Source: Parcubacteria group bacterium (lineage in GTDB: Bacteria; Patescibacteriota; Minisyncoccia; Phycocordibacterales; DATDWN01). From it: 64,000 bases of DNA. The DNA lies in the NCBI GenBank assembly GCA_039740895.1, contig JBCLGS010000001.1:4013-68012 (forward strand), read 5' to 3'. Every line of letters begins with the position of its first letter. The first letter of the stretch is position 1. Shown one piece after another: positions 3,691 through 63,299 of the stretch. The position numbers and the translations under genes were made by a program. The notes below the pieces were generated by a model, which made no database searches, had not been told where the DNA came from, and worked only from the letters and a program-made list of their open reading frames with translations.

Positions 3691-4174
3691 AAAATTCTAA
3701 ATTTGTAATGAAAGATTTTGGAATAGCAATAAAAGTTGGCTTTTCTACAGGATGATTATCGATCTTTATGCCAGTCTTTATTGTCTCTGGGTCTTTTATG
3801 ATAACGGCGTCTGGTGTAACTTTATATAAATTACCTTCACTATACATAACAGTACACTTATCTGACATACTTCCGTTTGTAAAATGAACTATATCTGTCC
3901 AATAAATACCGATATCCGAGCCTATTCGAGAAGATACATCAGATAAATCGGATTGTATCTCTCTATTTTTTCCTTTTAAAATTAAAGCTTGTTTTGGGAT
4001 AAGTAACCCCTCTTCCGCGACTCCATTTTTTTCAGTAAAAGAAATCGCTATGTGTTCACCAGAGGAAATAATGAGATTGCCGATTGCTATATTTGTCTTG
4101 AAATTTGTATGCTTAAGATCCTGTTCCGTATAGTATAGAGCATCTATGTATCTAATAGCTATAATTGTATTCAT
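3674..4174 (-). CDS. Hypothetical protein (166 aa)
   Basis: ORF downstream of the dnaK terminator. No known motif. Confidence 0.5.
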   Translation of the reverse strand: MNTIIAIRYIDALYYTEQDLKHTNFKTNIAIGNLIISSGEHIAISFTEKNGVAEEGLLIPKQALILKGKNREIQSDLSDVSSRIGSDIGIYWTDIVHFTNGSMSDKCTVMYSEGNLYKVTPDAVIIKDPETIKTGIKIDNHPVEKPTFIAIPKSFITNLEFYDKKL

Positions 4175-4264: not shown

Positions 4265-6202
4265 CTATTTCCCCTCCTCACTCTTCTTCTCTTCAAAATC
4301 AGCATCTCTGACTTTTCCCTCTTGGCCGTCCGCAGGATTAGGCTCACCTTCTTTTGGGGCTGACTGTGCCTGTTCTTGTGCAGCTTTGTTCATTAGCTCT
4401 CCAATCTTTGAAAGTTCGTTTGATAAGTCAGAAGTTGTTGATTTTATTTTTTCCATATCTGGAGTGGTGTTGTCCTTTGCAGTTTTGGCGTCAGTTATTT
4501 TATCTTCAATTGATTTTCTTAGCTCTGCAGGAACTTTGTCCCCCGCATCTCGCAAAGATTTCTCCGCAGTGTAAATCATTTGTTCTGCAATATTTTTTGC
4601 CTCAATAACTTCTTTTTTCTTGGCATCTTCAGTGGCATGAACCTCAGCATCTTTCTGCATTTTTTCAATATCATCTTTTGAAAGACCCGAACGAGCTTCA
4701 ATGCGGATGGATTGTTCTTTGCCAGAAGCTTTATCTTTTGCCTTCACAGAGAGAATTCCATTTGCATCCAAATCAAACATGACCTCTATTTGTGGCATGC
4801 CTCGTGATGCTGGTGGTATTCCATCTAAAATAAATTGTCCAAGAGACTTATTGTCTCCAGCCATAGCGCGCTCACCCTGGACAATGTGAATTTCTACACT
4901 AGTTTGATTATCAGCAGCAGTGGAAAAGACTTGTGAACGAGAGGCTGGAATGGTCGTATTTCGCTCTACAAGCTTCGTAGCAACGCCCCCCATAGTTTCT
5001 ATACCAAGCGACAGAGGAATGACATCTAGGAGTAGTACATCCTTTACTTCACCCGACATAATACCTGCCTGAATAGCCGCCCCAAGTGCCACAACCTCAT
5101 CTGGATTGATTGTTTTATTTGGATCTTTACCGAAAAACTCCTTTACCTTGTCTGACATTTTTGGCATACGAGTTTGACCTCCGACTAAAATAACTTCATT
5201 GATTTCAGATATTTTAAATCCTGAAGCTTCCATTACACGCTTTGTGATAGACATTGCTCGGTCAATAAACTCAGAAGCTAACTCTTCAAGTTTTGCTCGG
5301 CTTATTTTTATAAGCAAGTGTTTTGGACCAGATGCGTCTGATGTGATGAATGGAATATTTACTTCCGATTCCATTGCAGTTGAAAGTTCTATCTTTGCTT
5401 TTTCTGCAGCTTCATCAAGTCTCTGAAGTGCAAGCATATCTGTTCGCAAATCTATTCCTGATTCTTTTTTAAATTCATCTGCAAGGAAATTTATAATTTT
5501 CTGGTCGATGTCTTTTCCTCCAAGATGACTATCTCCGTCTGTTGCTTTGACTTTGATGTCACCACCAACTTCATCAACATCCACTTCAAGAACTGAAATA
5601 TCAAAAGTTCCACCCCCAAAGTCGAAGACAACAATCTTTTCATCCTTTCGGCTCTTATCAAAACCGTAAGCAAGTGCGGCAGCTGTTGGTTCATTGATAA
5701 TTCTCAATACTTCAAGACCAGCAATCTGACCTGCATCCTTTGTAGCTTGTCTTTGTGCGTCGTTGAAATACGCAGGAACAGTAATGACAGCCTGAGTAAT
5801 TTTCTCGCCAAGTTTTGCTTCAGCATCTGCTTTCAATTTTCCAATAATCATAGCTGAGATTTCTTCTGGAGTGTATTCTTTGTCGTTCATTTTTACTTTC
5901 ACTCCACCAGTTGCTGATTTCAAAACTTCGAAAGGAACAATGGCTTTGTCCTTTTGAACCCCAGCGTCGTCAAATGTGTGGCCTATAAAACGCTTGATAC
6001 CATAAACAGTATTTTTAGCATTTGTTACAGCTTGTCTTTTGGCAAGCAAACCAACAATTCTCTCGCCAGTTTTTGAAACAGCCACAATAGAAGGAGTGGT
6101 TCTTGCACCTTCAACATTTTCCAATATTTTTGGTTGGCCGACTTCCATCACAGCGACAGCAGAGTTGGTGGTTCCAAGATCGATTCCTATAATTTTAGAC
6201 AT
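4265..6202 (-). CDS. dnaK: Molecular chaperone DnaK (Hsp70)
   Basis: [18 protein letters not shown] and [11 protein letters not shown] signatures over the full length. Confidence 0.97.
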
Positions 6203-7256: not shown

Positions 7257-7286
7257 AAAGTGTATATTACCATATCTTTCGTTTTC

Positions 7287-7564
7287 TCAAAACATGTCTT
7301 TTTTGAGACATTGCACAGGATATTAGAAAACAACGACGAAATTAAAGAAAGACCGAAGCACTGTTTGACGAAGTCGTAATCGACGAGGTGAGAAGCGAAG
7401 CTTCGCAAGACCTTGAGTATTTTGTAATCAAAATGCAAAAGGTGTACTGCTCCTGTAAGGAGTTTGCGAGAGGTCTTCGTAATGAGGAAGATTGTTTTCT
7501 TGATATCCGAGCATAGCAAAAGCCCACCAGGGCTTTCCGTGTCTCAAAAAAGACATGTTTTGAG
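7287..7564 (+). repeat. Structured palindromic element C1 carrying the conserved core (7389-7460)
   Basis: 25-bp perfect terminal inverted repeats (ctcaaaacatgtcttttttgagaca / tgtctcaaaaaagacatgttttgag). A 72-nt core is shared with 25727-25802 and 63641-63717. Confidence 0.8.
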
Positions 7565-7568
7565 ATTT

Positions 7569-8003
7569 TTATCTTTTTGACCACTGTGGGGCTTTTCGAG
7601 CTTTCTTCAGACCGAATTTTCTTCGCTCTTTAGCTCGGGGATCTCGTTTTAGGAATCCGGCTTTTTTCAAATCTTTTCGTAGGTCAGCTCTGTATTCAAC
7701 AAGCGCCCTTGCAACTCCGTGTCGCATAGCTTCTGCTTGTGAGTGGAGTCCTCCGCCGACAAGCTTTACTGTGACTAAGAATTTCTCTTCTGCACTAAGA
7801 CTTGCAAAAGGTTGCTTTACCACTACCTGCATTTCTTTTATTGAGAAGTATACGTGAAGTTCTTTGTCATTTACTTCAAACGACATCTTTGATGCTGGAG
7901 TGATGCGTATGCGGGCAATAGCGGTCTTTCGTCGTCCAACAGTTTCAATATATCTGTCGTCACTACTCTTGTTTATTTTTTTGATTGTTTTTATTTCAGC
8001 CAT
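7569..8003 (-). CDS. rpsI: 30S ribosomal protein S9
   Basis: C-terminus GGGLHSQAEAMRHGVARAL...RDPRAKERRKFGLKKARKAPQWSKR. Confidence 0.95.
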   Translation of the reverse strand: MAEIKTIKKINKSSDDRYIETVGRRKTAIARIRITPASKMSFEVNDKELHVYFSIKEMQVVVKQPFASLSAEEKFLVTVKLVGGGLHSQAEAMRHGVARALVEYRADLRKDLKKAGFLKRDPRAKERRKFGLKKARKAPQWSKR

Positions 8004-8354: not shown

Positions 8355-8371
8355 GTTTTTTACCTTATCAT

Positions 8372-8497
8372 AAACTTTCAAATTTGACCAAGGTCGCGTA
8401 TAAAATTTGAAAAAAAATTGGAGCCTACCTGAGTGCGTAGGCGACGATTCTTTTTCAGATTTTAGACGATGAAATTGGGCATAATTTGGAAGTTTTA
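8372..8497. repeat. Structured intergenic element A1
   Basis: ~125-nt imperfect palindrome with central hairpin gcctac-CTGAGTGC-gtaggc (8423-8442). Its end runs into the rplQ stop codon. Confidence 0.8.
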
Positions 8498-8852: not shown

Positions 8853-8890
8853 TATTATTCGTAACCATTCGTGTATTGATTCGTTATTTC
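8853..8890. repeat. ACGAAT-repeat element, copy D3 (inverted relative to D1)
   Basis: tattcgtaaccattcgtgtattgattcgttatttcgta lies between rpoA stop and rplQ start. Confidence 0.7.
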
Positions 8891-8896
8891 GTATAT

Positions 8897-9859: not shown

Positions 9860-9941
9860 AAAATTTAATTAATATTAGATTATATTATTATATAAAAGCT
9901 TGTAAATTCTACACTAATTTTATAAATAAAGCAAGTTTTTT

Positions 9942-10067
9942 AAAACTTCCAAATTTAGCCAAGATCAAGTATAAAATTTGAAAAAGAATTGGAGCCTACC
10001 TGAGTGCGTAGGTGACGATTCTTTTTCAAATTTTAGACGATGAGATTGGTTATAATTTGGGAGTTTT
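9942..10067. repeat. Structured intergenic element A2
   Basis: 17-bp perfect arm aaaatttgaaaaagaat / attctttttcaaatttt and hairpin gcctac-CTGAGTGC-gtaggt. Its end overlaps the rpsD stop. Confidence 0.8.
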
Positions 10068-10674
10068 ATCTACTATAGAACTCAATTACGGTATTAAGAT
10101 CAAACATATTATCGGACTGAACATACACTGGTGCACCCGTAATCTCGGCAACCTTCTTGATTATGTCAAACTTGATCCATGAAGGTGTTGTTACACTTTT
10201 CAATCTCTCATCAACATTTGCAAATAATGGTTTTGTCTTTGAACTCTCACGGATTTCAATCTTATCACCTATTTTCACTCGAATTGAAGGTATATCTACT
10301 CGCTTTCCGTTTACAAGAATGTGGCCGTGAGAAACAATCTGTCGACTACCAAGTCTTGTATTTGAAAGACCTATTCTACATATAACATTGTCCAGTCGTG
10401 TCTCTAGAAATTCAAAAATAGTTTGTGATTTGTTTGATGATTTCTTTGAAAGAGCCTCTTTAACATAATTTGAAAATGTTTTTTCTGTAAGACCATAAAT
10501 AAATCTAGCTTTTTGCTTTTCTGTTTGCTGTAGAGAATATTCAGATTTTGGTTTAGAAAATCCTTTCTTCCTGCCTTTTCTTTCCATTCTAAGTGCGTAT
10601 TTTTGAGTTTGAGTTTTCTCAAAAATTGGTGCTCCTAGGCGTCGTGCTATTTTGTATTTTGGTCCGATTATCAT
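10066..10674 (-). CDS. rpsD: 30S ribosomal protein S4
   Basis: MIIGPKYKIARRLG N-terminus and an S4 RNA-binding domain (RLDNVICRIGL...SRQIVSHGHILVNG). Confidence 0.95.
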   Translation of the reverse strand: MIIGPKYKIARRLGAPIFEKTQTQKYALRMERKGRKKGFSKPKSEYSLQQTEKQKARFIYGLTEKTFSNYVKEALSKKSSNKSQTIFEFLETRLDNVICRIGLSNTRLGSRQIVSHGHILVNGKRVDIPSIRVKIGDKIEIRESSKTKPLFANVDERLKSVTTPSWIKFDIIKKVAEITGAPVYVQSDNMFDLNTVIEFYSR

Positions 10675-10696
10675 AATATGTTTATTAATTTATTTA

Positions 10697-10822
10697 AAAA
10701 CTTTCAAATTTGTTCAAGATCGCGTATAAAATCTGGAATTGAATTGAAGACGTACTGAGTGCTACGTCGCCAATTCAATTCTGGATTTTAGACGATGAGA
10801 TTGGACATAATTTGAATGTTTT
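10697..10822. repeat. Structured intergenic element A3
   Basis: Same architecture with different arms (ctggaattgaattg / caattcaattctgg) and hairpin gacgta-CTGAGTGC-tacgtc (10749-10768). Its end overlaps the rpsK stop. Confidence 0.8.
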
Positions 10823-11252
10823 ATACTCTTCGTGACTTCTTAGGTTTGGGTCCATTATGTGGAACTGGAGTAACATCCTTGATTCCTGTTATGCTGATTC
10901 CTTTTGAAATAAATCCTCTGATTCCTGACTCTCGTCCTGAACCTACACCTTTTACAATAACTGCAACTTCTCGCATACCCATTGTTGCTGCCTTGCCTCC
11001 GAGGATTTCACCAACCTTTGCTGCTGCAAATGGAGTACCTTTCTTGGCACCCTTGAAGCCGATTGATCCACTTGAAGATGAACCTAGGACATTACCTTTG
11101 GTGTCTGTAAGGACGATTTTGGTGTTGTTGTATGTAGACTGGATGTATAGTCGGCCAACTTCAACTTTCTTTTTTGAGACAGCTAAAACCGGAGTAGCTT
11201 TTACTTCTCCTTCAGTATCACTTCCAGTTTTTACGATTCGTTTTTTTCCCAT
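10821..11252 (-). CDS. rpsK: 30S ribosomal protein S11
   Basis: GRLYIQSTYNNTKIVLTDTKGNVL...GFKGAKKGTPFAA. Confidence 0.95.
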   Translation of the reverse strand: MGKKRIVKTGSDTEGEVKATPVLAVSKKKVEVGRLYIQSTYNNTKIVLTDTKGNVLGSSSSGSIGFKGAKKGTPFAAAKVGEILGGKAATMGMREVAVIVKGVGSGRESGIRGFISKGISITGIKDVTPVPHNGPKPKKSRRV

Positions 11253-11267
11253 TTTATTAATTTATTT

Positions 11268-11451
11268 AAAAACTTTCAAATTTGTTCAAGATCGCGTATA
11301 AAATCTGGAATTGAATTGAAGACGTACTGAGTGCTACGTCGCCAATTCAATTCTGGATTTTAGACGATGCTCCATTGTTTTCTTATGAGCAAAGCGAGTT
11401 AGAAAACAAGCAGTACCCTTGTGGCAAGATTGGACATAATTTGGAACTTTT
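11268..11451. repeat. Structured intergenic element A4 with nested 57-nt insertion (11370-11426)
   Basis: Near-identical to A3 over the first ~100 nt, then a 57-nt insert between gacgatg and agattgg. Its end overlaps the rpsM stop. Confidence 0.8.
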
Positions 11452-11830
11452 ACTTCTTATCGGCAGCTTTCTTGCCAGACGCCATCGTCTTTCTGACATT
11501 TCCTCGTCTTGTTCTGGAATTTGTTTTTGTTCTTTGTCCTCGTGATGGAAGACCTTTTGCATGTCTGGTTCCTCGGTAAGTTTTGATATCCTTTAGTTGC
11601 TTTATGTTTCTAGCAACTTCACGTTTCAAATCTCCTTCTATTTTATACTCTTCTATAATCTTTCGAATTGTATTTTCTTGGTCAACCGTTATCTCTTTTG
11701 GCTTTAAACCGTGAGGAACCTTTGCCTTATCTAATATAGTATGTGCAAGAGGTCGTCCAATACCATAGAGGACTGTTAATCCAATTTCAATTCTTTTTTC
11801 TTCCGGTAATGTGATTCCAAGTATTCTCAT
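11450..11830 (-). CDS. rpsM: 30S ribosomal protein S13
   Basis: MRILGITLPEEKRIEIGLTVLYGIG N-terminus and a basic C-terminus. Confidence 0.95.
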   Translation of the reverse strand: MRILGITLPEEKRIEIGLTVLYGIGRPLAHTILDKAKVPHGLKPKEITVDQENTIRKIIEEYKIEGDLKREVARNIKQLKDIKTYRGTRHAKGLPSRGQRTKTNSRTRRGNVRKTMASGKKAADKK

Positions 11831-11870: not shown

Positions 11871-11988
11871 AAATTTCAAATATGGATGAAATCCGAGGCG
11901 GACGAGAATTTTGTTTGGAGCCGTACTTATCGTACGGTGACAAACAAAATTTGAAGTCCAACGATGGAGTTCGCCATATTTGAAATTT
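11871..11988. repeat. Structured intergenic element B1
   Basis: 15-bp perfect terminal inverted repeat aaatttcaaatatgg / ccatatttgaaattt and central hairpin ccgtac-ttatc-gtacgg. Related copy at 59182-59305. Confidence 0.75.
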
Positions 11989-12104
11989 TACCCTTGGCGC
12001 TGTTTGTGTCGGGCGTTGGATTTGCATGTAATATAAACATAGCCCTTTCTTCGGACTACTTGGCATTGCGCACATATTTTTTTAACTGATGATTTTACTT
12101 TCAT
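11988..12104 (-). CDS. rpmJ: 50S ribosomal protein L36 (not in ORF track)
   Basis: Hand translation: [38 protein letters not shown]. Sits between infA and rpsM as expected. Confidence 0.9.
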
Positions 12105-12106
12105 AT

Positions 12107-12140
12107 TACGAATTATCACGAATTTATCGAATATACGAAT
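12107..12140. repeat. ACGAAT-repeat element, copy D4 (diverged)
   Basis: tacgaattatcacgaatttatcgaatatacgaat has four CGAAT units at 8-10 nt spacing and fills the infA-rpmJ gap. Confidence 0.5.
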
Positions 12141-12141
12141 G

Positions 12142-12481: not shown

Positions 12482-13060
12482 TTACAGCAAAACATTATTG
12501 ATGCATGATTTTTGTTGTGCAAAAATCAAAAACTCCCTATTTTTGCCCTTCTCGCCGAGGATTGGTGATTCTGTTTCAGAAAGGATTTCGAGACCGAGGG
12601 ATTTTAATTTTTCTCTAACTTTTTCCAAAACTTCCGGAATAAACTCCTCCTCTAGCTTCCCTTTACGAATCATTCTTTGCTCCGCCTCATAGTGTGGCTT
12701 TAGCAATACTATAATATGCCCACCTTCTTTCAAATTTAGCAGAACATTTGGAATGACTTTTTCTAATTTGGTCCAGCTGGTGTCCACAGATATTAAGTCT
12801 GGCTTTTCTGGTAGCAAAACATGCATGGCATTGTTTCTCTCTAGCACTACCACTCTTTTGTCCTTTCGAAGCTTCCAGTCCAAAACGCCATAGCCAGTCT
12901 CTACTGCATAAACCTTTAGAGCACCGTTCTGAAGTAGACAATCAACGAAACCGCCCGTACTGGAGCCAAAATCAGCACAAATAAGACCCTTGGGGCTAAA
13001 TCCAAAGGTTTTTAAGGCATGTTCCATCTTCTCCCCGGCACGAGATACATATATAGTCAT
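12482..13060 (-). CDS. tlyA: TlyA/FtsJ-like rRNA methyltransferase
   Basis: SAM-binding DFGSSTGGFVDCLLQNGA. The start is taken at Met44 (13060) because upstream codons are encoded by palindromic element C4. The last codons and stop lie in a 30-nt palindrome shared with mnmA. Confidence 0.75.
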   Translation of the reverse strand: MTIYVSRAGEKMEHALKTFGFSPKGLICADFGSSTGGFVDCLLQNGALKVYAVETGYGVLDWKLRKDKRVVVLERNNAMHVLLPEKPDLISVDTSWTKLEKVIPNVLLNLKEGGHIIVLLKPHYEAEQRMIRKGKLEEEFIPEVLEKVREKLKSLGLEILSETESPILGEKGKNREFLIFAQQKSCINNVLL

Positions 13061-13260
13061 TTGAATATATTTTTTAAGACACGCATAAAGCCTTGGTTGG
13101 CTTTTGCTATGCTCGGATATCAAGAAAACAATATACTCGATACATAGCCCTTTCGCAAACTCCTCGTCGAGTACGACTTCGTCAAACAATGCTTCGGGCT
13201 TATTTCATCTTCGTATTTGTTTTCTAATATCCTGTGCAATGTCTTAAAAAATATATTCAA
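13061..13260 (-). repeat. Structured palindromic element C4 (homolog of C1, inverted, core absent)
   Basis: 21-bp perfect terminal inverted repeat ttgaatatattttttaagaca / tgtcttaaaaaatatattcaa. The reverse complement aligns with both C1 arms but joins cgacgagg directly to agtttgcga. Confidence 0.8.
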
Positions 13261-13265
13261 ATGTC

Positions 13266-14660
13266 CTACTGACTAAGAGTATTTACCAACTTCACTTTAT
13301 TAGGATCATTAGGAATTATCTTATTCCAAATTGGCTGTATTTTTATCCATGATTCTTTGATTGATTTATAGTTTGAAATTACAATTCTAGCTTTGTCATC
13401 CGAAAGACCAAGAAGATCTGATTTTAATTTATTTTCATCAAATATCCATTCAAACTTGGCGTCTCCCTTTAATGTAAAATCCAATGTATTTGAGGTGTTT
13501 GATTCAAATGTGGAATCTGTTGGATATGAAAATTCAAAACTTTCTAGATTTGAAATTTTTACCATATCGACTGTCATACTAGCCAATGCCTTACTTATTA
13601 TCGCTCTAGACAAAGAACCTTTATCAAAAATTATTGCAATCGCCGTGCCTTTCTTTCTTAACACAGCACTATTTTCTGCACCAGGTTCTGTTGCCTGTGT
13701 AATAGCTGAATAAACATAAGAAATACTACCTGTGTACAAAACGAAATTAGCTGGAATTTGAGACAATATTTCTCTTGAAAGGTACTCTTTAACTTTTGCC
13801 TCAAGTTCTGCCTCGGTAGCTTTCAAGACACCACCCTCCACCACTTTTTGCATACCTTCAAAACCTCCAGACATAGGTGTTTTAGATCTGGCATATATTT
13901 TTGAAAAACGAGGGTCACTTTTAAATCCAGGAATAGTAAAATCCTTTAATCCAACATTGTATTTATCACCAGGAGCATCTGCATATACATCAACCAAAAC
14001 ACTTCCAGCAATTGCCGTCTTACCTGGAATGTTTATTGCGCCAACAGATTTGAATATTAGACCTTCTAGTGTCTGAAATCTTGTGTTTATTAATAGTTTT
14101 TGAGGCTCAACACTATAGTTGTTATAAACCATGATCTGTCCTGTAGCTTTTCGGCTAACTTTTTGTTCGCTAGTGGCCGATACTGTCTTTTCCATATCTT
14201 TACTTAATACGACAGTCTGAAACGCTAAACCTCCATTATTGTTGTCTTTTTTAGCAGTAAATTTCTCATCAAATGTAACTATCTCATTCTTTGGAGTGAC
14301 TCCCACTATAGCACTTTTAAATAATGCTGATATTCCAAACACTAGAGCAATTACAAATAGCAGAATTGCTCCATATAATATTTTCTTTGATGACTTTGGT
14401 CTATCTTCATATTCAAAAGCGTATTTTTCCACTTCAACTTTATTAGATTTTGGAGGAATTTTTATTTCTTCCTTCTCAATTTTGATACCAACACTTCTTC
14501 CTAAAGGAGAAACTTTTTTGGGTTTGATATCAGAAAAAGCAACAGCGCTTGAATCTGGGGTTATTCGCTCTCGTCTTGAAGGAATACCGACATTTCGAAT
14601 TGATCTGTGTGCCGGCACAATATCTTGAACTAATTTTTTTTTAGGTTTTATATCATCCAT
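13266..14660 (-). CDS. Hypothetical membrane-anchored protein (464 aa)
   Basis: Single predicted TM segment (ILYGAILLFVIALVFGISALF) after a basic N-terminus. Sits downstream of an actin-like ATPase gene. Confidence 0.6.
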   Translation of the reverse strand: MDDIKPKKKLVQDIVPAHRSIRNVGIPSRRERITPDSSAVAFSDIKPKKVSPLGRSVGIKIEKEEIKIPPKSNKVEVEKYAFEYEDRPKSSKKILYGAILLFVIALVFGISALFKSAIVGVTPKNEIVTFDEKFTAKKDNNNGGLAFQTVVLSKDMEKTVSATSEQKVSRKATGQIMVYNNYSVEPQKLLINTRFQTLEGLIFKSVGAINIPGKTAIAGSVLVDVYADAPGDKYNVGLKDFTIPGFKSDPRFSKIYARSKTPMSGGFEGMQKVVEGGVLKATEAELEAKVKEYLSREILSQIPANFVLYTGSISYVYSAITQATEPGAENSAVLRKKGTAIAIIFDKGSLSRAIISKALASMTVDMVKISNLESFEFSYPTDSTFESNTSNTLDFTLKGDAKFEWIFDENKLKSDLLGLSDDKARIVISNYKSIKESWIKIQPIWNKIIPNDPNKVKLVNTLSQ

Positions 14661-15964: not shown

Positions 15965-16600
15965 TTACTTAAGCATTTTTAAAAGTATAGGGTAGATTCT
16001 ATCAGCAATTTTTTGGTTTCCGATATCGTTTGGATGAATAGAATCCGCCATATATCTATCATCTGCTATTAAACCATCTAAAACATTTGAAACAAAAGCT
16101 GTATGATATTTATCTCTCAATTTTTCGAATTCGGTATCAAATTTATCACTCAGTATTCCACCTCTAATTCCAAGGAGTACCACAATAGTGCCTCTTCTTT
16201 GGAGGTCGGCGATTATTTTCTCCAAATCAATAAATGTTTCTTCTTTGGGAATTTTTTTTAAATAATCATTTCCACCAAAAAGAAGTAGGACAATTTTTGG
16301 ATGATATTTATCAAATTGGTTTAATCGAGCTATCCCGTCTGCTGTAGTATTTCCAGAAATTCCTAAGTTGATTATAGGGATACCTATTTTTTTTGAAAGA
16401 AGCGACACAAAATTTTTACTTTCGCTCGACGCTCCTGTTCCTACAATTAAACTATCTCCGAAAGCAATGATATCTGTTCCACTGGAAGGATAATTGACTA
16501 TTTTATCTTCTCGAATAAATTTGAAATAAAAAATAGCAAACAAAATAAATACGATTGAAACACATATAGCGTAAATGACTTTTTTGTTTATGGAATACAT
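15965..16600 (-). CDS. SGNH/GDSL hydrolase
   Basis: Block I FGDSL, block III GGNDY, block V DSIHPN, with an N-terminal TM anchor. Confidence 0.85.
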   Translation of the reverse strand: MYSINKKVIYAICVSIVFILFAIFYFKFIREDKIVNYPSSGTDIIAFGDSLIVGTGASSESKNFVSLLSKKIGIPIINLGISGNTTADGIARLNQFDKYHPKIVLLLFGGNDYLKKIPKEETFIDLEKIIADLQRRGTIVVLLGIRGGILSDKFDTEFEKLRDKYHTAFVSNVLDGLIADDRYMADSIHPNDIGNQKIADRIYPILLKMLK

Positions 16601-16966
16601 ATGATTATGGCTGTATCAAAGAAATTAGCTCTTTTTCTGACAAAACAGGAACTCCTTCTTTTAATGCTTTTTGGTACTTACTTCCAGGCTCATTTCCTAC
16701 TACTACGAATGAAGTCTGTTTTGAAACACTTTCTGTAATTTTCCCACCAAGTTCTTTAATTTTTTTCTTGGCATCATCACGACTCATTGTTTCAAGTGTA
16801 CCAGTAATGACAAAAGTTTTGCCAGCTAATTTCTGACTTATAGTCTGAGATTTATACGGTAATATAGAGACTCCATTTTTGAAAAGTTTTTCTATAAATT
16901 TCAAATTATCTTTATTTCGGAAATATTCAAAGACACTTTTAGAAACCACTGGTCCTATATTTTCAA
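16599..16966. repeat. 368-bp direct repeat, left copy (duplicate of ligA 3' end)
   Basis: Matches 18445-18812 at an offset of 1846. Both boundaries were mapped by eye and the encoded residues are identical. Confidence 0.85.
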
Positions 16967-18361: not shown

Positions 18362-18444
18362 TTGAGTTAGTTGGATTCAAGTTTCTAATACAAATAGTAT
18401 AACCTAATTGCACATGAACAACAAATCATATTCATTTTAAATGA

Positions 18445-22282
<3,838 letters not shown>

Positions 22283-24167: not shown

Positions 24168-25586
24168 TTATAGCGTTTTTTCGATAATTCCTCCGCCAAG
24201 ACACTTATCCCCCCGCCCGCCTCGACCATGAGAGCGTGTCGGGCAGGCATCATACAAAACAGCAGACTGTCCAACCGCCACGCCATTTTGAGGTTTGTCA
24301 AACTTAATTACATAACATGCAGGACTTTTTTTTGAGCTATCGAAAAAATGTTCTTGCTTACGCAAAACATTATTTTCGATCCGATTTTCCTTGTTGGAAA
24401 ATCGTCTGCGTTCTCGTGCAGAAGGCTCTCTTCTGCAAGTCCTACTAATAGTGCATTTTTGTTTTTCTTGACGATATCTTATTCGGACTAGACATTTTAG
24501 AGGAAGTTTTGGTTCGGTGTTTGAAATAAAATGCATATCTGAAACAACAACTTCAGAAGTGCTGAAAACATCCTCAGCTTCAGTTTCTTTATTTGCGACA
24601 GTAATGGTATTTTTATCCAAATCTTTTGCTACCACAAAATACCGAGGCTCATTTGGAGTTTTTTTCAAGATATTATATCCCTGTCTAGCACCTATGGTGT
24701 AAAAAATTGCACCATCGTGATATCCAATAACTTCACTACTAGTATTCAAAACATCTCCCCGTTTAGTTTTTATAAAGTGAGATAAAAATTCACGCATATC
24801 AAGTTTGCCCAAAAAACAAACCCCTTGGCTGTCTTTCTTTGTGGCTGTTGGTAAACCAAACTTTTCCGCGAGCTTCCGAACCTCTGGCTTTGTCATCCCA
24901 CCAATCGGAAAAAGTGAACGAGAAAGCTGTTCTTGATTCAGTGTGTATAAAAAATATGATTGATCTTTATTTTTATCAACTGATTCATGGAGTTGATACT
25001 CGTAATTAAAAATCTCTTTCTCGTCATATCCTTTGGGGAGCACGGATATTTTTCTGTTGAAAAATTCCTCAAGTCTCGCCTGCCCGGCTTGCGAAGTCTC
25101 CCCAAAGGATACGACATCAACGAGATTTTTTTTACTTATCAATCCTATTTGACTATAGTGACCAGTGGCAATAAAATCTGCACCCATCTCCAGTGCCTTT
25201 TTTAAAAAGACACCAAATTTTACATATTTATTACAAAAAACATCTGGGTTTGGAGTTCGTCCCATTTTATACTCTCTTATCATATAGTCAGCAACTTCTT
25301 TCTTGTATTCAGCTTCACAATCCATGGTCAGGAAAGGAACACCGAGTGTGGCGCAAACCCGCATAGCACTTCGTCTTTCTTCCTTCCAATCACATGGCAA
25401 AAAATCTGGATGCCAGGTCTTCAAAAATACACCTGTCACGTCGAAACCATCCCTAAACCCCTCTGGGGTCGGGCGACCAAATAATTTTTCAAAATTATTT
25501 GGTGTAGCCTTTTGTAAGAGCGCCAAAGCCACAGAGCTATCCACTCCACCTGAGACACCTACGAACACCTTTGGCTTTTTATTCAT
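24168..25586 (-). CDS. mnmA: tRNA 2-thiouridine(34) synthase MnmA with in-frame insertions
   Basis: PP-loop VGVSGGVDSSVA, GHY and a C-terminal LGGGII. It is longer than I recall for typical MnmA, owing to inserted segments. Confidence 0.9.
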   Translation of the reverse strand: MNKKPKVFVGVSGGVDSSVALALLQKATPNNFEKLFGRPTPEGFRDGFDVTGVFLKTWHPDFLPCDWKEERRSAMRVCATLGVPFLTMDCEAEYKKEVADYMIREYKMGRTPNPDVFCNKYVKFGVFLKKALEMGADFIATGHYSQIGLISKKNLVDVVSFGETSQAGQARLEEFFNRKISVLPKGYDEKEIFNYEYQLHESVDKNKDQSYFLYTLNQEQLSRSLFPIGGMTKPEVRKLAEKFGLPTATKKDSQGVCFLGKLDMREFLSHFIKTKRGDVLNTSSEVIGYHDGAIFYTIGARQGYNILKKTPNEPRYFVVAKDLDKNTITVANKETEAEDVFSTSEVVVSDMHFISNTEPKLPLKCLVRIRYRQEKQKCTISRTCRREPSARERRRFSNKENRIENNVLRKQEHFFDSSKKSPACYVIKFDKPQNGVAVGQSAVLYDACPTRSHGRGGRGDKCLGGGIIEKTL

Positions 25587-25623: not shown

Positions 25624-25865
25624 AAAACAAACTAAATAATACCTTTTCTGAGACCCCGCAGACCTGAAGCAGGTTTTGTCAACGACCCGACTGAAAGGAG
25701 GGCTCATTGACAAATTCAGGTCGAGGTGAGAAGTGATAGTATCACTTCGCAAGACCTTGAGCGTCTGTAGTCAGATGCGAAAGGTGTACTGCTCCTGTAA
25801 GGAGAGAATTCAAAACCCGCTGGGGTTTTGAATGTTCTCAGAAAAGGTATTATTTAGTTTGTTTT
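25624..25865 (+). repeat. Structured palindromic element C2 carrying the conserved core (25727-25802)
   Basis: ~30-bp terminal inverted repeats (aaaacaaactaaataataccttttctgaga / tctcagaaaaggtattatttagtttgtttt). Its end overlaps the mltG stop. Confidence 0.8.
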
Positions 25866-36105: not shown

Positions 36106-36246
36106 GATGAGATTATACTTTTTGGGAGACTTGCGAACGCGACTGGCGTGAGTACGAGGAATTTTCTAGTAAGAAAATATCCGTGCTCCCAAGAAAACCT
36201 GTTCAAAACCAGAATTATTTGGTACTATCATGATAGGAGGAATTCA

Positions 36247-36853: not shown

Positions 36854-36939
36854 AATCAGACTATATATTCAAGTCAAAGTATTGTATATTAATTTTACAA
36901 CTAAATAGTTAGTAGTAGCCTAAACCAGTAATGATACAG

Positions 36940-37052
36940 GTATGGCAAAGGTCCAGTTAGACATCAAAGAACCAATCATGGGGTTGTCTAACTGGCCATA
37001 TCGGGAAACCGATATGAGTGACTTCGGTCACTACCTATGTGGTGGGCTTTTT
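36940..37052 (+). ncRNA. Candidate structured RNA or leader (unclassified)
   Basis: Three hairpins: an 11-bp stem 36953-36963/36985-36995; catatcgg-GAAA-ccgatatg (36997-37016); agtgac-UUCG-gtcact (37017-37032). A GGGCUUUUU tract follows. Confidence 0.45.
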
Positions 37053-37169: not shown

Positions 37170-38765
37170 ATGAAAAATAAAATAAACATTGTTTTCATTT
37201 TCTTATTAGGAATAATTTTAATACCACAGATAGCCTTGGCGGCTTGGTGGAATCCTTTTAGTTGGAAAATTTTTAACAGAACTTCTACACCAGTAACTAA
37301 TATAACGATTTCTAATAACACTGAAGTACAATCGTCAACACTTATTAAGTTTGATGACGCTGTTATTAAATCAGTAATGATGATTAAGATTTTTGATAAT
37401 AATGAGAATAGAATTATCTCTTCAGGATCAGGAATTTCTCTCGGTGGCTTTGGGAATATTTTAACAAATTATCATGTAGTTGAAAAAGTTTTTTCAAATC
37501 CTAGTAGATATAAAGCTTATGGGTGTGTGACGATCTCATTGAACACAGCTCCAGAATGTAATTATTTGCTCAGCACCACAAGAAAACTATTAAACGATAA
37601 TACTGTTAATGCAAAATATAATAAAAATTTAGATTTAGCCCTACTTTACATAGATCAAATTAAGATAAATGATGAGTGGACATCAATTATAAATATATCA
37701 CTTGATAATTTAAAAGATCGCTCTATAAATCTTTCTTCTTATACAAAAAACTATAATGATTTATTGGTTGGTAGCCCAATATATTCAGTAGGTTATCCAG
37801 ATTATGGAGGTGAAAAGACAATTCAAGTTGATGGTGCAGTTGAAAAAATTATAAAAGATCAACAAAGTGGTCAAATACTTATACTAAGTTCCTTAAATAT
37901 ATCTCATGGAAATTCTGGTGGTCCTGTTTTTAATTCCAATGGTGAGTTAGTGGGTGTCACAGTTCAGTGTCTTACGGCTTTTTTGGGAGCTTATGAGTGT
38001 CTAACAAATAGTGGTATATTCATTCCCTTACCAACAGTAAATTGGTGGTACACGAAAGTTAATAATTCACACATAATATCGTGGCAAGGGAAGAATTATT
38101 ATTCTTCTAATAATGGTATTTCTGATAATACTCAAAAGACTGCTTTTTGTAGTGTGCCACTAAAACAAAATTCTTATTATGACGCTAATGTTTCAACAGA
38201 TAATTGTATATGTAAATCTGGGTTTTCTAAAAACTCAAACGGGGATTGTGTGAATGGATCAGGATATGTTGATCCAAGTTTGCGCTATGGCAAGCTAGCT
38301 GATCCAGAAGCAGAAAAGAAAGCCCTCCAGGCTCTCGATAGTTTGTTTAGTGACTTAAACCAAAATTCAGTACAAACACCTGTTCTAAGTTATTTGTACA
38401 ACAACTATAATCCTGCTATTTTAAAAGGTAATGCGGGGGAAGAGTACAGAAACAAAGGTTTGTATTCTGCTGCAGATGGGCAAAAAACCGATGCGACTAA
38501 TTATCTTAATCTTGCAATAAATTCTTATGATGATGCATTAAGAATCTTAGGTAATAATCCGCCAATGGAATGGAAAAGATCATATGATTGTCTTGTTTCT
38601 GGGTTTAATAATGCACGCAGTGCTTCACAGATATTGTTACAAGGTGTTCCATATTTTAAAGTGAGTATGAAATCTGTGGACTATTTGAATCAGGCGCAAG
38701 TATTGCTTAATAAAGGTATTTTAGATTCAGTGTGTGCTTCAAATAATGCTCCAAGTTTAAAATAA
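37170..38765 (+). CDS. Secreted trypsin-like serine protease (S1 family) with C-terminal extension
   Basis: Signal peptide; TNYHVV (His), LDLALL (Asp) and HGNSGGPVF (Ser). Confidence 0.8.
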   Translation: MKNKINIVFIFLLGIILIPQIALAAWWNPFSWKIFNRTSTPVTNITISNNTEVQSSTLIKFDDAVIKSVMMIKIFDNNENRIISSGSGISLGGFGNILTNYHVVEKVFSNPSRYKAYGCVTISLNTAPECNYLLSTTRKLLNDNTVNAKYNKNLDLALLYIDQIKINDEWTSIINISLDNLKDRSINLSSYTKNYNDLLVGSPIYSVGYPDYGGEKTIQVDGAVEKIIKDQQSGQILILSSLNISHGNSGGPVFNSNGELVGVTVQCLTAFLGAYECLTNSGIFIPLPTVNWWYTKVNNSHIISWQGKNYYSSNNGISDNTQKTAFCSVPLKQNSYYDANVSTDNCICKSGFSKNSNGDCVNGSGYVDPSLRYGKLADPEAEKKALQALDSLFSDLNQNSVQTPVLSYLYNNYNPAILKGNAGEEYRNKGLYSAADGQKTDATNYLNLAINSYDDALRILGNNPPMEWKRSYDCLVSGFNNARSASQILLQGVPYFKVSMKSVDYLNQAQVLLNKGILDSVCASNNAPSLK

Positions 38766-45925: not shown

Positions 45926-48088
45926 TTACTCATTGATTGTCTTTTCTGCAAAAATCACAGCTTCGGTATTTTCTGGGTTCATAAGAACTGGCCACCAAAA
46001 TGGTGTATCGCGCCAGCCACTATCTTTGTCACCATTTTGACGTATCAGCATTAAAGCAGGAATATCTTGTGCAATATCTCGTGCGACAGAACGTACTGAT
46101 TTTCCACTTCCTCCGTCTGGGTCGTCTGAGATACGACCATCATTCTTATGTCTACTCAGATTCATGTTCTTTCGTATAACAATCCACACCTTTCCGCGCT
46201 GTTCGATATTTTTACTATTCACAGACAGGTACTCCATGCTCGACCTAAAAGTACTCCAACTCCATGCATACAAAGGATCCAGTTCTAGCGTCTTTTCAAT
46301 CAGGCTTACAACATGAAGTGCTTCCTTCAAATCAACGCTAACTGAGCCATTTTCATCAATAGTCGCAAACCATTCACTTACTATTCCGTCTACTTCAGCA
46401 ATTACAGATTCAATATGTGTTTTATATCCAGACTGAAAACCAACTGGTAACATTCTTTTGTGCGGCTGTAGTGTAGCAAGAGAAGATAGCAGTAATTTAT
46501 TTGGGGAACACGGCACCAACTTACCTGTTACATCCTTCCTAATAAAATATACTCCTTGCTCATGGCTTCCCCTCTCAAATGCCTCTCTTAGCGCTGAATC
46601 AAATTGGTGTATTCGTCTCATCACTTCGTAAATATCACGTGTTGTATAAAATCTTGTAACAGCCAGGTCCTCTCTTGATCTTGCCCCATACATACGTGAA
46701 TGTTGCAGGACGGTATCTTGCTGAAACTTCTTAGGGCTTCTTCCATAATAAAAACCTATGAGATTATTTATGGTCACCCCACGGTCAAGAATCTGACCGC
46801 CAACAAAAATATTCATTGGGTTACGTAGTTTAAGTTGGCCCTCATTATCGAGCAATTCTTCAACATCTTTATCAGAGTTTACAACAATGGTAACAATATA
46901 TTCCTTTATAAGCGCCTCTAAAGAGTTTTCTAGTACAACATCTATAGAAGGAATCACCATCCCGTCAACTTTCTGCAATGATTTTATGATATCATCATAA
47001 GCTTCTCGCAGGAGTTGACGAACAACTGGCTTGTCACTTTTTGCAGCAATGGCAAGCTGAGACACAATCGCTTTAATCACTTCAGCTTGCCAATGATGCG
47101 AAGCTCTACTTATTTCACTATGTGCTATAAGTGCATACTTCTGCACTTTTTCATTAGTAGATTCTTGTTGAAATCTTCTTATAACACTACCTACTATAAA
47201 ATTTATAACAGCAGAACGAAGTGACTTAATTTTTTCAGAAAATAACACATCGTCCAGTTTTAATCGACGAGAGTCTGATTTTTTTAATACATCACGTTCA
47301 TCCGTAGAAACCTCTTCATACACGTTATACGCTATTGAATCCTCGTCGTCACTTTCTTCAAAATAAAACTGACCTCCAACATAATTATCATGAATTGGTA
47401 CTAATGTAGTAAAAATGGGTCTCCTTGGAAGGAATTTCATGTTTGCTGTCTCTTCTGTGGTGGGCTGAAGGTATAAAGAATATGGAGTAGCGGTAACCTG
47501 CAGATAATCTACCTCTTTAACAATATTCCAGAGCTCGTCAATTTGTGACGATATTCTACCAACCTCTATCGCTTCCTCATGTTTTCTAAAACTAATGCTG
47601 GCAAAGTCAGCTTCATCGTCAATGATAAGAATCTTCTTTTCGCGGAGATCCGGATAAACACTAGCAAGCGTTTTAAGAATCCGTCTCATGTTATTGACTT
47701 CCTTCTTAACAATAATGATTAGTTTTTTATTACGCTCATACCCGGTTAGATTGTCTGGCATATGCATAATATCAAACACATCCACAAGGTCCTCTTCGAT
47801 AAATTCCTTAAAGTCTTTTCCCATTCTATGCACAGTCTGCGTCAAGAGGGCTTTCGTGCCTTTAGTAAGAATGATCGAAACATCGTACCCCTTATCAAAA
47901 GCAAGGGCCATGATTCCAATAAAGGCTCGCGTCTTCCCACTCTGAATTTTCCCGAGGAGTATTCCAGGCTTCTTTGAAGAGGTATCATTCTCGAGTAATT
48001 TTGTGACTGTTTCTTTCATGCACTCCACAAGATCTGGCGCATCTTCACGCATGCTTACAAGTCTGTTGAACATCGTTTCTTTTTCCAT
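45926..48088 (-). CDS. Z1-domain P-loop NTPase (restriction-system-associated family)
   Basis: Walker A GKIQSGKTRAF, Walker B IIDDEADFASI and a large C-terminal domain. Assignment to Z1 is from recalled family features. Confidence 0.6.
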   Translation of the reverse strand: MEKETMFNRLVSMREDAPDLVECMKETVTKLLENDTSSKKPGILLGKIQSGKTRAFIGIMALAFDKGYDVSIILTKGTKALLTQTVHRMGKDFKEFIEEDLVDVFDIMHMPDNLTGYERNKKLIIIVKKEVNNMRRILKTLASVYPDLREKKILIIDDEADFASISFRKHEEAIEVGRISSQIDELWNIVKEVDYLQVTATPYSLYLQPTTEETANMKFLPRRPIFTTLVPIHDNYVGGQFYFEESDDEDSIAYNVYEEVSTDERDVLKKSDSRRLKLDDVLFSEKIKSLRSAVINFIVGSVIRRFQQESTNEKVQKYALIAHSEISRASHHWQAEVIKAIVSQLAIAAKSDKPVVRQLLREAYDDIIKSLQKVDGMVIPSIDVVLENSLEALIKEYIVTIVVNSDKDVEELLDNEGQLKLRNPMNIFVGGQILDRGVTINNLIGFYYGRSPKKFQQDTVLQHSRMYGARSREDLAVTRFYTTRDIYEVMRRIHQFDSALREAFERGSHEQGVYFIRKDVTGKLVPCSPNKLLLSSLATLQPHKRMLPVGFQSGYKTHIESVIAEVDGIVSEWFATIDENGSVSVDLKEALHVVSLIEKTLELDPLYAWSWSTFRSSMEYLSVNSKNIEQRGKVWIVIRKNMNLSRHKNDGRISDDPDGGSGKSVRSVARDIAQDIPALMLIRQNGDKDSGWRDTPFWWPVLMNPENTEAVIFAEKTINE

Positions 48089-48091
48089 AAT

Positions 48092-48412
48092 TTATTTTAT
48101 TTGAATTATCTTCATCACTTCGTCGCCATAGCGATTGATGACCTTATATGGGAATCTTGCCTGTTACCGGCTTGGCAAATGGTCTTGAGATGGTGGAAAC
48201 GAGTGAATCAAAAATGTCAGGGTTTATATCTACCTTGGGGGCCTTCTTGAGTTTCTCGTAGGGGTTCTCAAATGACTGGGAATATGCGATTGCGGACGCT
48301 TCAATTTCTTTGCTACCTCAGTTTGAGTCAACTCTGCTTCTTCCAGGGCTTTCCGCAATCGCTCGACAAAATGGGCGTATTCCTTTGTTTGTCTTGACTT
48401 AGTCGTATACTA
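48092..48412 (-). pseudogene. Decayed XRE-family HTH gene (no start codon, at least two frame changes)
   Basis: Frame 1 reads FVERLRKALEEAELTQTEVAKKLKRPQSHI, then shifts. The final frame ends ...VINRYGDEVMKIIQIK with its stop 3 nt before the Z1 ATG. No ORF of 60 aa or more on either strand in 48089-48712. Confidence 0.45.
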
Positions 48413-48580
48413 CTATGTTCTATCTAAATTGTCAATAGCCCACTCCAGCTCATTAAAACTGTTAGCTAGCCAAGAATGAATATCTCGCAAATAGGTTACA
48501 GTATTTCCATATAAAAATGGAAATAAAGTACGAGATATCCAAACAAGTACCACAGCACAGCATCTATTCCCCCACAAAGA

Positions 48581-48602
48581 GAAAAGGTGTCAGGAACTTT
48601 TC
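48581..48602. repeat. Motif E, inverted orientation
   Basis: gaaaaggtgtcaggaacttttc; its reverse complement resembles aaaggttcctgacaccctt at 45883. Confidence 0.45.
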
Positions 48603-48605
48603 TTT

Positions 48606-48707
48606 GCCTCCCCATCTTCCCCGTTGTGTTTTCAGGACCAAACTTTTTTATTACCTTATCAAATTTCCTCTCGATTTAACAAACAATGGTGCCTGACCCA
48701 TTTTCCC
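48606..48707. repeat. ~100-bp direct repeat R2 (34-nt perfect core 48636-48669)
   Basis: See R1. Ends with motif E (aatggtgcctgacccattttccc, 48685-48707), whose stem is AATGG/CCATT versus AAAGG/CCTTT elsewhere. Confidence 0.75.
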
Positions 48708-48712
48708 ACCTT

Positions 48713-49813: not shown

Positions 49814-49817
49814 ATTA

Positions 49818-50048
49818 CTACTTTTGATTAAAAATTTTTCTGATATCAATATCAAGCGCATGAAAAATTTTTATGAGCGTATGGACAGATGCTTTGCGTC
49901 TATTTGTTTCAATATCACTTATAGATTTTGCCGCTAGGTTGACGGTGCGCGCGAGTTGCTCTTGTGTTATTTTTTTTGCTCGACGAAAATCGCCAATTTT
50001 TGATTGGATTTCATTCTGCACCTTCAAAAAGTCTATATTGGGGAGCAT
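49818..50048 (-). CDS. XRE-family HTH controller (C) protein
   Basis: ITQEQLARTVNLAAKSISDIETNRRKASVHTLIKI is a typical HTH_3, and the gene sits immediately upstream of the putative REase. Confidence 0.75.
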   Translation of the reverse strand: MLPNIDFLKVQNEIQSKIGDFRRAKKITQEQLARTVNLAAKSISDIETNRRKASVHTLIKIFHALDIDIRKIFNQK

Positions 50049-50125
50049 GTTTAAATTTTAACTTATATTATGATACAATATAACCGGCTAACTGCCGTAG
50101 TAAAAAATGATTATTAAGTAAAAAT

Positions 50126-59181: not shown

Positions 59182-59305
59182 AAAAACTTTTATAATTTGA
59201 ATGAAATCCGAGACGGACAAAAAATTTGTGCGAAACCGTACTCCTGTACGGTGACAAACAAATTTTGAAGTCCAACGATGGAGTTCGTCAAATTTGAAAG
59301 TTTTT
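59182..59305. repeat. Structured intergenic element B2
   Basis: Shares atgaaatccgag, hairpin ccgtac-tcct-gtacgg, gtgacaaacaaa and gaagtccaacgatggagttcg with B1. Confidence 0.75.
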
Positions 59306-63170: not shown

Positions 63171-63299
63171 GGGCCCGTAGCTCATCTGGTAGAGTGAGTT
63201 TGGGATAGGGACCCAAACGCAAGACCGGAGGCGCGACGGCGCTGAGGTGGGGTCGAAAGATTTTTCAGTAGAAAAATACTTTTGACCAGCATTTGCAAT
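63171..63299 (+). pseudogene. tRNA-Ala 5' fragment interrupted by a 92-nt structured insert
   Basis: The first 24 nt are identical to tRNA-Ala at 63319. An insert spans 63195-63286, then agcatttgcaat matches the anticodon-loop region. No 3' half. Confidence 0.6.

Follow-up and report, generated by a model that had tools for sequence, protein, structure and literature searches.

The window analysed here, a stretch of 64,000 nt from contig JBCLGS010000001.1 of a Parcubacteria group bacterium, contains two closely related hairpin elements, C1 and C4, which share a body that we call H. C1 (7285-7565, plus strand; delimited by repeats, alignment and nhmmer) lies between rpsI and grpE and is closed by perfect 26-bp outer arms (7285-7310 and 7540-7565), and C4 (13058-13263, minus strand) lies between a 464-aa ORF and a gene recognized with Pfam as FtsJ/TlyA-like. 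Since the flanking genes are all on the minus strand, the two elements are in opposite orientations relative to their neighbours, as the first-pass annotation of this DNA had reported. The H body of C4 (13089-13246) scores 117 bits with an nhmmer H profile, and it is enclosed by a perfectly paired, locus-specific palindrome, one arm of which (13058-13081) takes in the start codon (CAT) of the FtsJ-like gene, the other (13240-13263) being its inverted copy. C4 had been described as filling the whole intergenic gap, from the start codon to 5 nt from the upstream stop; with limits of 13058 and 13263 it in fact includes the CAT itself (13058-13060) and ends 2 nt, not 5, short of the stop codon at 13266-13268, which closes the upstream ORF. 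If C4 is carried in the operon transcript, in which it would be in sense, the start codon of the FtsJ-like gene would fall inside a 24-bp stem. The predicted folds are strong for both elements, at -115.7 kcal/mol for C1 (z = -10) and -84.5 kcal/mol for the minus strand of C4 (z = -11.3), and a search for promoter and terminator consensus sequences at C1 and C4 returned nothing above shuffled sequence.

Alignment of 7270-7580 (plus strand) with 13050-13275 (minus strand) using MAFFT gives a single block of 72 gap columns, with continuous homology on both sides, and this bears out the original observation that C4 corresponds to an inverted C1 minus a 72-nt core. The C4 junction reads cgacgagg|agtttgcga, and the same flanks in C1 enclose TGAGAAG...CTGTAAGG (7389-7460); placement of the gap is ambiguous in that it slides over an AGG (13162-13164 on the minus strand of C4, in the context cgacgAGGagtttgcga) at the site where C1 holds its core. 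The arms of the two elements match over segments of 95 nt (86% identity), 69 nt (84%) and 29 nt (79%) according to a repeat finder run on the window, and a 33-mer of the right arm, TTGTTTTCTTGATATCCGAGCATAGCAAAAGCC, occurs exactly twice in the window against an expectation of 0. An nhmmer profile of the H arms likewise finds exactly two copies in the window, at 7304-7534 (plus) and 13246-13089 (minus), and these two are each other's closest relatives, with about 85% identity. C1 is an H copy with an apical core, and C4 is a paralogous, coreless H copy in the same genome. The label of 'empty site' that had been given to C4 is not established by this relationship, as C4 may either never have held a core or have lost one by slippage between the two AGG triplets, which the C1 fold brings together. 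Such slippage would yield exactly the C4 sequence, and the apex of the H lineage to which C4 belongs has no outgroup. The nearest homologue of the FtsJ-like gene is 77% identical and is not syntenic, so that there is no orthologous site with which C4 can be compared.

The core itself is a module of approximately 75-85 nt with three hairpins, for which aligned copies give the layout RGGUGAG-P1-CGCAAG-ACCUU-GA-P3-GA-AAGGU-GUACWG-P4, where P4 is a hairpin of 4-5 bp with a YGUAR loop. The window contains three full cores, all on the plus strand, and these have diverged from one another yet are all intact. The C1 core matches the covariance model in full at 7386-7463 (cmsearch R1, 83.4 bits), C4 lacking positions 7389-7460 of it. 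A second (25724-25805; 87.7 bits) is at the apex of C2 (25620-25869, plus strand), a different, H-like hairpin with 59-nt inverted arms recognized from its repeats and sequence, and the third, C3 (63633-63718; 85.7 bits), has no long arms and lies 240 nt downstream of a tRNA-Ala gene (63319-63392) on the same strand. C1 and C2 are both antisense to their two neighbouring genes. The tRNA-Ala gene is also preceded by a composite on the plus strand (63173-63228), in which a duplicate of tRNA positions 1-24 (63173-63196) leads into a truncated core (63197-63228) that retains TGAG, P1 and CGCAAGACC and is followed by an H2-like piece (H2 being a second palindrome family discussed below) and a remnant of the anticodon arm; the composite, identified by sequence together with a weak R1 match at 63192-63276, is 35 nt upstream of the intact gene. 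This is the one truncated core that we have seen, and it is interrupted by another repeat.

Cores are widespread beyond this genome. A scan of one-genome-per-species contigs for the pattern CAAGANCTTGAG, 8-36 nt, AAGGTGTAC recovered at least 115 loci, nearly all from Patescibacteria, and 70 of the 80 record titles displayed name members of that phylum, including Saccharibacteria, Paceibacteria, Zambryski-, Kaiser-, Nomura- and Taylorbacteria among others. Four of the genome matches arose by chance and are without the remainder of the motif. The same holds for three matches within a single coding sequence among 2.9 million viral contigs, which yielded no true core. In more than 100 copies the conservation is bounded by RGGTGAG at the 5' end and by the 3' strand of P4, with unrelated flanks beyond, and these boundaries are the sharp, uniform ends of a discrete module, as had been proposed, and not the heterogeneous ends of ordinary decay.

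The pairing of the core is well supported by covariation in a set of 71 distinct copies. Standard pairs make up 98.2% of the cells, as against 33-53% in controls with slid partners, and 176 cells have changed on both sides, as against 37 ± 5 in shuffles; compensatory change is seen at 10 of the 20 pairs. In the consensus pairs G-U outnumbers A-C by 31 to 2, and in P3 by 36 to 2, and the strand carrying GGUGAG is the better-folding one in all 71 copies. The excess of G-U over A-C, which recurs in the H arms, indicates that the form under selection is a single strand, either RNA or single-stranded DNA. Saccharibacteria, Paceibacteria and other lineages all have the same joining nucleotides, although a part of these is fixed by the scan pattern itself. 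The core has no coding capacity of its own, with a single sense frame open in a consensus reading and that without a start codon, and core lengths are uniformly distributed modulo 3. With Rfam 15, the whole window at gathering thresholds gives LOOT and tRNA alone and leaves the core without a match, the C1 and C4 regions at E<=10 give chance matches to microRNAs and snoRNAs alone, and twelve core-bearing loci give tRNA and tmRNA alone. A literature search for the motif, and for repeats of this type in Patescibacteria, did not turn up any description of the core. Resemblances to the hammerhead, the K-turn, the T-box, group II domain 5, 6S, SRP and tracrRNA were also considered, and do not fit the pairing that covariation supports.

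H, the family to which the arms of C1 and C4 belong, is an element of approximately 200 nt that forms a long, imperfectly paired hairpin from which a small one branches at the side, in the order AGACAYTGCRCAGGAWATTAGAAAACAACGACGAA...GAAGCCYGAAGCA..., a variable apex, ...CGAGTTTGCGAGAAGGCT...GATTGTTTTCTTGATTTCCGAGCAWAGCAAAA, the side hairpin and ...ATGCGTGTCT; the side hairpin has 8-10 bp and covaries. H is also without a family match in Rfam 15. Metagenome contigs scanned with the 5' arm motif GCRCAGGAWATTAGAAAACAA gave 28 loci, of which about 24-25 are true H copies, and one of these (L132) carries a core. In this unbiased sample the coreless form is the rule for H. A profile search of all the contigs fetched gave about 33 copies. 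In Patescibacteria contigs there are at least 30, and several contigs carry more than one, including the window with two, L142 with two in opposite orientations and L048 with at least two. In the window and in L142 the element is seen in both orientations and more than once per contig, which agrees with the suggestion that the outer palindrome is independent of orientation. A description at the DNA level alone is incomplete, given that the folds of core and arms alike belong to one particular strand, with G-U far in excess of A-C. The asymmetry of H is milder than that of the core, at 47 G-U against 21 A-C, and the strand shown here folds better in 20 of 21 copies.

The palindrome that closes each element also needs to be divided into two parts. 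The inner arms are H, with conserved bulges and G-U pairs; the outermost 15-26 bp, which had been treated as part of the repeat, are not H but a locus-specific inverted copy of the flank, with which each H copy is extended, often perfectly and differently at every locus. At two loci (L049 and L050) these outer palindromes are built from the 3' end of a neighbouring tRNA gene. Quasi-palindromes are known to undergo correction and extension, and on this basis the perfect outer palindromes may be secondary products of fold-back copying of one flank, through intrastrand template switching, at the edge of a long hairpin.

Within H, cores are found in three positions. They occupy the apex in C1 and in L045, and also in a short H variant (L083/L132); in L055 the core follows gagttttgcaagaagg, where the coreless relatives L119 and L134 read ...gcgagaagGCTCtggagtgagg; and in L048 and L097 it lies in the right arm at cgaG^CATagcaaaa. 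Filled and empty apexes can be paired in two different H sublineages, namely C1 with C4 and L045 with L117 (ggcgaccgaagg^gagtctgcga). We considered whether C4 and L117 might be excision footprints with an extra GAG, and rejected this because both sequences are accounted for equally well when they are aligned without gaps to other H apexes (CGAG to GGAG). H2, the second palindrome family, carries an apical core in L095, L031, L028, L020, L014, L001 and others, and is present without a core in the window at 25035-25130 (minus strand, in frame in mnmA) and at 36118-36195 (plus strand, located with the repeat finder). The core is oriented with the better-folding strand of H in all six distinct cases of H with a core, and with respect to flanking ORFs it is oriented almost at random (19 opposite to both, 13 the same as both). 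An association of cores with long palindromes in every case is not borne out, as strong pairing between the 100-nt flanks is seen in only about 21 of 100 copies; a long palindrome is thus a frequent host and not a required one. H and the composite of H2 with a core are also seen to have spread as units, so that some apparent insertions were perhaps inherited and are not independent.

The sequences at the junctions bear on how cores come and go. The three bases before UGAG are purine-rich, with G at position -2 in 76% of copies and A in 21%, and a purine at position -3 in 93%; G at position -1 follows from the construction of the core search. GAGG, which had been put forward as a possible target preference, is indeed the commonest tetramer before the core. 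It had been suggested that the AGG on either side of the C1 core could be a target duplication or microhomology. The conserved ends of the module are themselves RGG|UGAG at the 5' side and GUAAGG with the rest of P4 at the 3' side, so that an AGG is expected at any clean gain or loss and does not point to a target duplication. In a scripted suffix test the longest direct repeat at a junction ranges from 0 to 9 nt, and the lengths are distributed as in shuffled pairings, so that there is no target duplication of fixed length and microhomology is no more than suggestive. Among the longer repeats are an 8-nt CCGAAGGG in L045 and GTAAGG or TGTAAGG (6-7 nt) in L002, L080 and L042, and a 10-nt repeat TAGGGACTAG was read by eye around the core of L038, where the scripted test gave TAGGG only.

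The 3' limit of the moving unit is set by P4. Two loci on one contig, L028 and L048, have cores that are identical from AGTGAG through the whole of P4 and have different flanks, and the moving unit therefore holds both P4 strands. The notion that the 3' strand of P4 is supplied by the target fits C1/C4 and L045/L117, but is contradicted by this pair, in which P4 has travelled with the core. Mosaic cores also occur: several pairs have near-identical P1 to P3 and entirely different P4 sequences, and the C1 and C2 cores have P4 in common and differ in P1 and P3. Such copies indicate short-patch exchange between cores.

Some cores are located inside protein-coding genes. In L030 a 1023-aa ORF, which we read from its sequence as a ribonucleotide reductase, has a sense core in frame in its C-terminal linker, where the core encodes KGETRILGASQDLERPSSDAKGVQLRYG; sense in-frame cores are also present in L114 and L027, and the host reading frames stay open through the sense cores. 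Antisense cores are in frame in L082 and L026, where they encode LTGSVHLSH...QGLA. The L082 product is a phosphosugar mutase with approximately 42 extra residues, relative to PDB 1wqa, exactly at the core, and the L026 ORF is one that we take, by sequence resemblance and not by family comparison, to be dehydrogenase-like. The H2 palindrome in the window behaves similarly, in that its MnmA has an insert of approximately 43 aa relative to E. coli MnmA (PDB 2der), within residues 148-198, that coincides with it.

Others are associated with tRNA genes. Of 116 cores, 28 are within 500 nt of a tRNA gene, and by a hand tally about 20 of these are on the strand of the tRNA and most are downstream of it. 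Some lie inside partial tRNA duplicates that adjoin the intact gene, as in L110, L010 and the window (63173-63228). L110 contains the 3' half of a tRNA-Ile (from position 33), in the variable loop of which the core follows GACGAGG, the same heptamer that precedes the C1 core, and L010 contains the 5' part of a tRNA-Thr with the core after the D arm, an architecture shared with the composite in the window. In L049 and L050 the 3' end of the neighbouring tRNA is repeated at the borders of a composite of arms and core, once inverted and once direct, and these repeats start in the T-loop (positions 54-56). Thus the 3' part of the tRNA is duplicated in L110, L049 and L050, and the 5' part in the window and L010. 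The starts in the anticodon loop (L110) and in the T-loop (L049 and L050) are at the classical crossover positions of integrases.

A search for genes that might mobilize the cores found no gene family that recurs within 2.5 kb of 116 of them, and no transposase, integrase or reverse transcriptase that does so; nor is there one among the 20 window ORFs that were scanned. The largest cluster of neighbours comprises seven loci and is, by its sequence, apparently a housekeeping membrane protein. The strand of the core shows no bias with respect to local GC skew (57:51, p = 0.63), skew being a proxy only for the direction of replication.

The phenomenon first noticed as a 72-nt difference between two hairpins is real, and is more general than a reading of the one sequence had suggested. 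H and the core are two independent, nested families of structured repeats, and the core is discrete, structured in a strand-specific manner, dispersed, nested in other repeats and present in frame inside genes. We consider it probable that the core is a non-autonomous insertion module, behaving as a small selfish element and nested in H and H2, that spreads by way of a folded single strand. Copies of the whole unit would enter other DNA, with a preference for sites immediately 3' of a purine-rich RGG or GAG at or near the apexes of hairpins, with gain proceeding through a folded single-stranded intermediate and short, variable microhomology to its own ends (RGG...AGG). Spread would then most likely occur by copy-choice or template switching together with short-patch conversion, with no dedicated transposase, and loss of the core as a unit would occur by slippage between the two AGG triplets that the fold draws together.

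The main rival to this view is that the fold is retained as a useful RNA or protein-binding domain, a proposal that is compatible with mobility. In this case the core would be a structured RNA domain that serves the host, for example as a protein-binding or regulatory small RNA often expressed with tRNAs, and that has been duplicated and exchanged between transcripts, and C1 and C4 would be paralogous H RNAs with and without it. The strong covariation and strand-specific G-U pairs are in keeping with such a domain, as are the intactness of the three divergent cores in the window and the agreement of core orientation with the better-folding H strand; selection on an RNA or on a protein-binding site accounts for the invariance of the joining nucleotides across divergent lineages at least as well as passive copying does, and the position of many cores downstream of tRNA genes on the same strand hints at expression with the tRNAs. 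We nonetheless regard it as unlikely, because C1 and C2 are antisense to both neighbours and are not flanked by promoter or terminator consensus sequences, cores are oriented almost at random with respect to flanking ORFs, the gene neighbourhood is not conserved, no Rfam family matches, and copies occur in frame within enzymes, some of them in antisense. Mobilization in trans, either by a single-strand HUH transposase of the IS200/IS605 or REP/RAYT type or by a tyrosine integrase that targets tRNA genes and acts on miniature elements, seems to us doubtful. While the module boundaries are sharp, the strand-specific fold places hairpins beside both ends, the purine-rich RGG context resembles a target tetranucleotide and some partial tRNA copies start in the anticodon loop (L110) or the T-loop (L049 and L050), no transposase, integrase or reverse transcriptase recurs within 2.5 kb of the cores or is present among the window ORFs scanned, the GC-skew bias of IS200/IS605 elements is absent, the 3' boundary holds both strands of P4, the junction repeats vary in length and the viral contigs contain no true core.

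Two further explanations are considerably weaker. One is that nothing is mobile, and that C4 is a C1-like duplicate from which replication slippage between AGG triplets has removed 72 nt. C1 and C4 are indeed closest relatives, and the missing segment has an AGG on both sides that the fold brings together, so that slippage may well explain C4; it does not explain the family, in which coreless H is the rule, the core keeps the same boundaries at three sites in H and across many unrelated contexts, and a single truncated copy, interrupted by another repeat, has been seen. As a general account it is refuted by the family data, and we think it very improbable that decay of this kind is all that is involved. 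The other is that the core is an intron-like element removed from RNA, a reading prompted by the fact that the 72 nt may be read as GUGAG...UAAG and that sense copies occur in tRNA fragments and in some ORFs. It can be given almost no credence, since antisense copies are in frame within conserved enzymes, sense copies leave the host frame open, the core-bearing pieces of tRNA are partial duplicates that adjoin intact genes, core lengths are uniform modulo 3 and no intron family matches.

The nested insertion module that we favour resembles several known systems and differs from each in some respects. Like the Rickettsia palindromic elements (RPEs), which are short, have no gene of their own, are dispersed in a reduced genome and occur both in intergenic regions and in frame in housekeeping genes, where they add tolerated peptides (PMC10969869), the core is found in frame in unrelated genes (L030, L082, L026 and L114), among them those for the putative ribonucleotide reductase and the phosphosugar mutase, and H2 is found in that for MnmA. 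This is a functional analogy only, as the host phylum is unrelated, the core spans many class-level lineages whereas RPEs are confined to one genus, and the core is not a palindrome but has three separate hairpins, linked by invariant nucleotides, and folds clearly on one strand. Bacterial MITEs and nested small repeats, such as Correia/NEMIS, ERIC and the mutually inserting pneumococcal BOX/RUP/SPRITE clusters, are multi-copy and non-autonomous, form hairpins in transcripts and nest in one another (PMC10969869). Core and H are similarly multi-copy, non-autonomous and nested, the core being dispersed over at least 115 loci, several per contig, with no coding capacity of its own, and H has long inverted arms like those of a MITE. 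However, the ends of the core, RGGTGAG... and ...YGTAR-stem, are not complementary, so that it has no terminal inverted repeats, and it has neither a target duplication of fixed length nor a known parent insertion sequence; the outermost H palindrome, moreover, is locus-specific and is not the terminus of an element.

Palindrome elements of the IS200/IS605 group and the REP/RAYT system offer a parallel in that one strand is specifically folded, hairpins stand next to the ends, terminal inverted repeats are lacking and the 5' context is short and specific. The differences are that the core has no GC-skew bias and no TnpA or RAYT that recurs within 2.5 kb of 116 copies, that its 3' end is a complete covarying hairpin and not a cleavage tetranucleotide beyond a hairpin, and that its centre is highly conserved, whereas such elements need no conserved centre. 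Group I introns occur in tRNA genes of Patescibacteria (PMC13011429), and the core shares with mobile self-splicing introns of groups I and II a strand-specific structure and an occurrence as interruptions of genes for tRNAs and proteins, within the phylum in which these group I introns are found. It differs in its size of about 80 nt, in matching no ribozyme family, in occurring antisense and in frame within ORFs and in host frames that are read through, and the pieces of tRNA that carry it are not functional genes.

These observations have several implications for the Patescibacteria, whose genomes are among the smallest and most streamlined of any bacteria; this window still contains no fewer than four families of small structured repeats, which nest within each other and are inserted even in essential genes (mnmA here, and the putative ribonucleotide reductase and the phosphosugar mutase elsewhere). 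Such elements are a hazard for annotation in this group, in which they extend ORFs spuriously, insert peptides and give rise to pseudo-tRNA fragments. Filled and empty sites provide a handle on the movement of tiny repeats that have no transposase, a question that is unexplained for the RPEs too. We would go further only tentatively, and think it rather improbable, in suggesting that the core is a new mobile structured nucleic acid specific to Patescibacteria, in which the ~80-nt RNA or single-stranded DNA fold is itself the recognized or catalytic unit that is copied in; if so, it would target hairpin apexes, tRNA-like stems and coding DNA, with H and H2 as preferred landing pads, and would be a bacterial counterpart of SINEs or a minimal self-inserting element. 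With more than 100 representatives, covariation and no Rfam entry, the core is a candidate for a new family of RNA or single-stranded DNA motifs.

Four intergenic spacers of the ribosomal-protein operon are filled by copies of a hairpin repeat of ~143 nt, located at 8355-8497 (rplM-rplQ spacer), 9926-10068 (rpoA-rpsD), 10681-10823 (rpsD-rpsK) and 11253-11452 (rpsK-rpsM). The stems show compensatory changes among these four copies, and the loop CTGAGTGC is kept across them. Within the fourth copy is an additional 57-nt hairpin (11370-11426; ...ATTGTTTTCTT...TTAGAAAACAA...) that echoes the arms of the ~200-nt hairpin repeat family H; this is a further pair of filled and empty sites.

Compared with MnmA proteins of solved structure, the MnmA ORF (24168-25586, minus strand; 472 aa) contains several inserts. 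The largest (residues 148-198; window 24992-25145) is an in-frame palindrome of the type of H2, the second palindrome family; other gaps in the alignment lie at approximately residues 27-45, 382-427 and 447-458. An H2-like fragment (63229-63300), fused to a truncated copy of the three-hairpin core, also adjoins the tRNA-Ala gene, as does a markedly G+C-rich stretch of ~180 nt (63450-63630) immediately upstream of the core copy C3. Neither the fragment nor the G+C-rich stretch has a match in Rfam at E<=1.

The window contains other repeats as well. A structured-looking repeat of ~115 nt is present in two copies with 78-93% identity (11874-11989 and 59189-59303). One copy lies between rpsM and infA, and the other precedes a heavy-metal-associated/DsbD-like ORF. 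A direct repeat of 300 nt (16594-16893 and 18440-18739; 99% identity, spacing 1846 nt) overlaps the 3' ends of two ORFs, of 121 aa and 693 aa; part of a gene could have been duplicated recently, or the repeat could be an artefact of the assembly. A 40-nt inverted repeat (1158-1197 and 8855-8894; 95% complementary) is composed of ACGAAT-like hexamers, and similar CGAAT runs are found upstream of infA (12076-12141); this type of repeat may represent a motif that recurs near promoters or has a regulatory role.

A LOOT RNA (Rfam RF03000) is present at 36917-37032 on the plus strand, its 73.7 bits well above the family's gathering score of 46.4, with a trypsin-like peptidase ORF (37170-38765) downstream. 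The low-GC segment at 45926-52198 (GC minimum 25%) codes for two proteins, one Z1-domain/ResIII helicase-like and the other an N6/N4 DNA methylase of 690 aa, and has the appearance of an islet for restriction-modification or defence.

Outside the window, contig L142 carries two H copies in opposite orientations 1.5 kb apart, at 3933-4088 (minus) and 5548-5702 (plus). At L128, L129, L135 and L137, on contigs from two lake samples that are related to each other (Ga0194053 and Ga0194054), the H interiors are near-identical and the flanks different, and for this reason H itself looks to have been recently dispersed.
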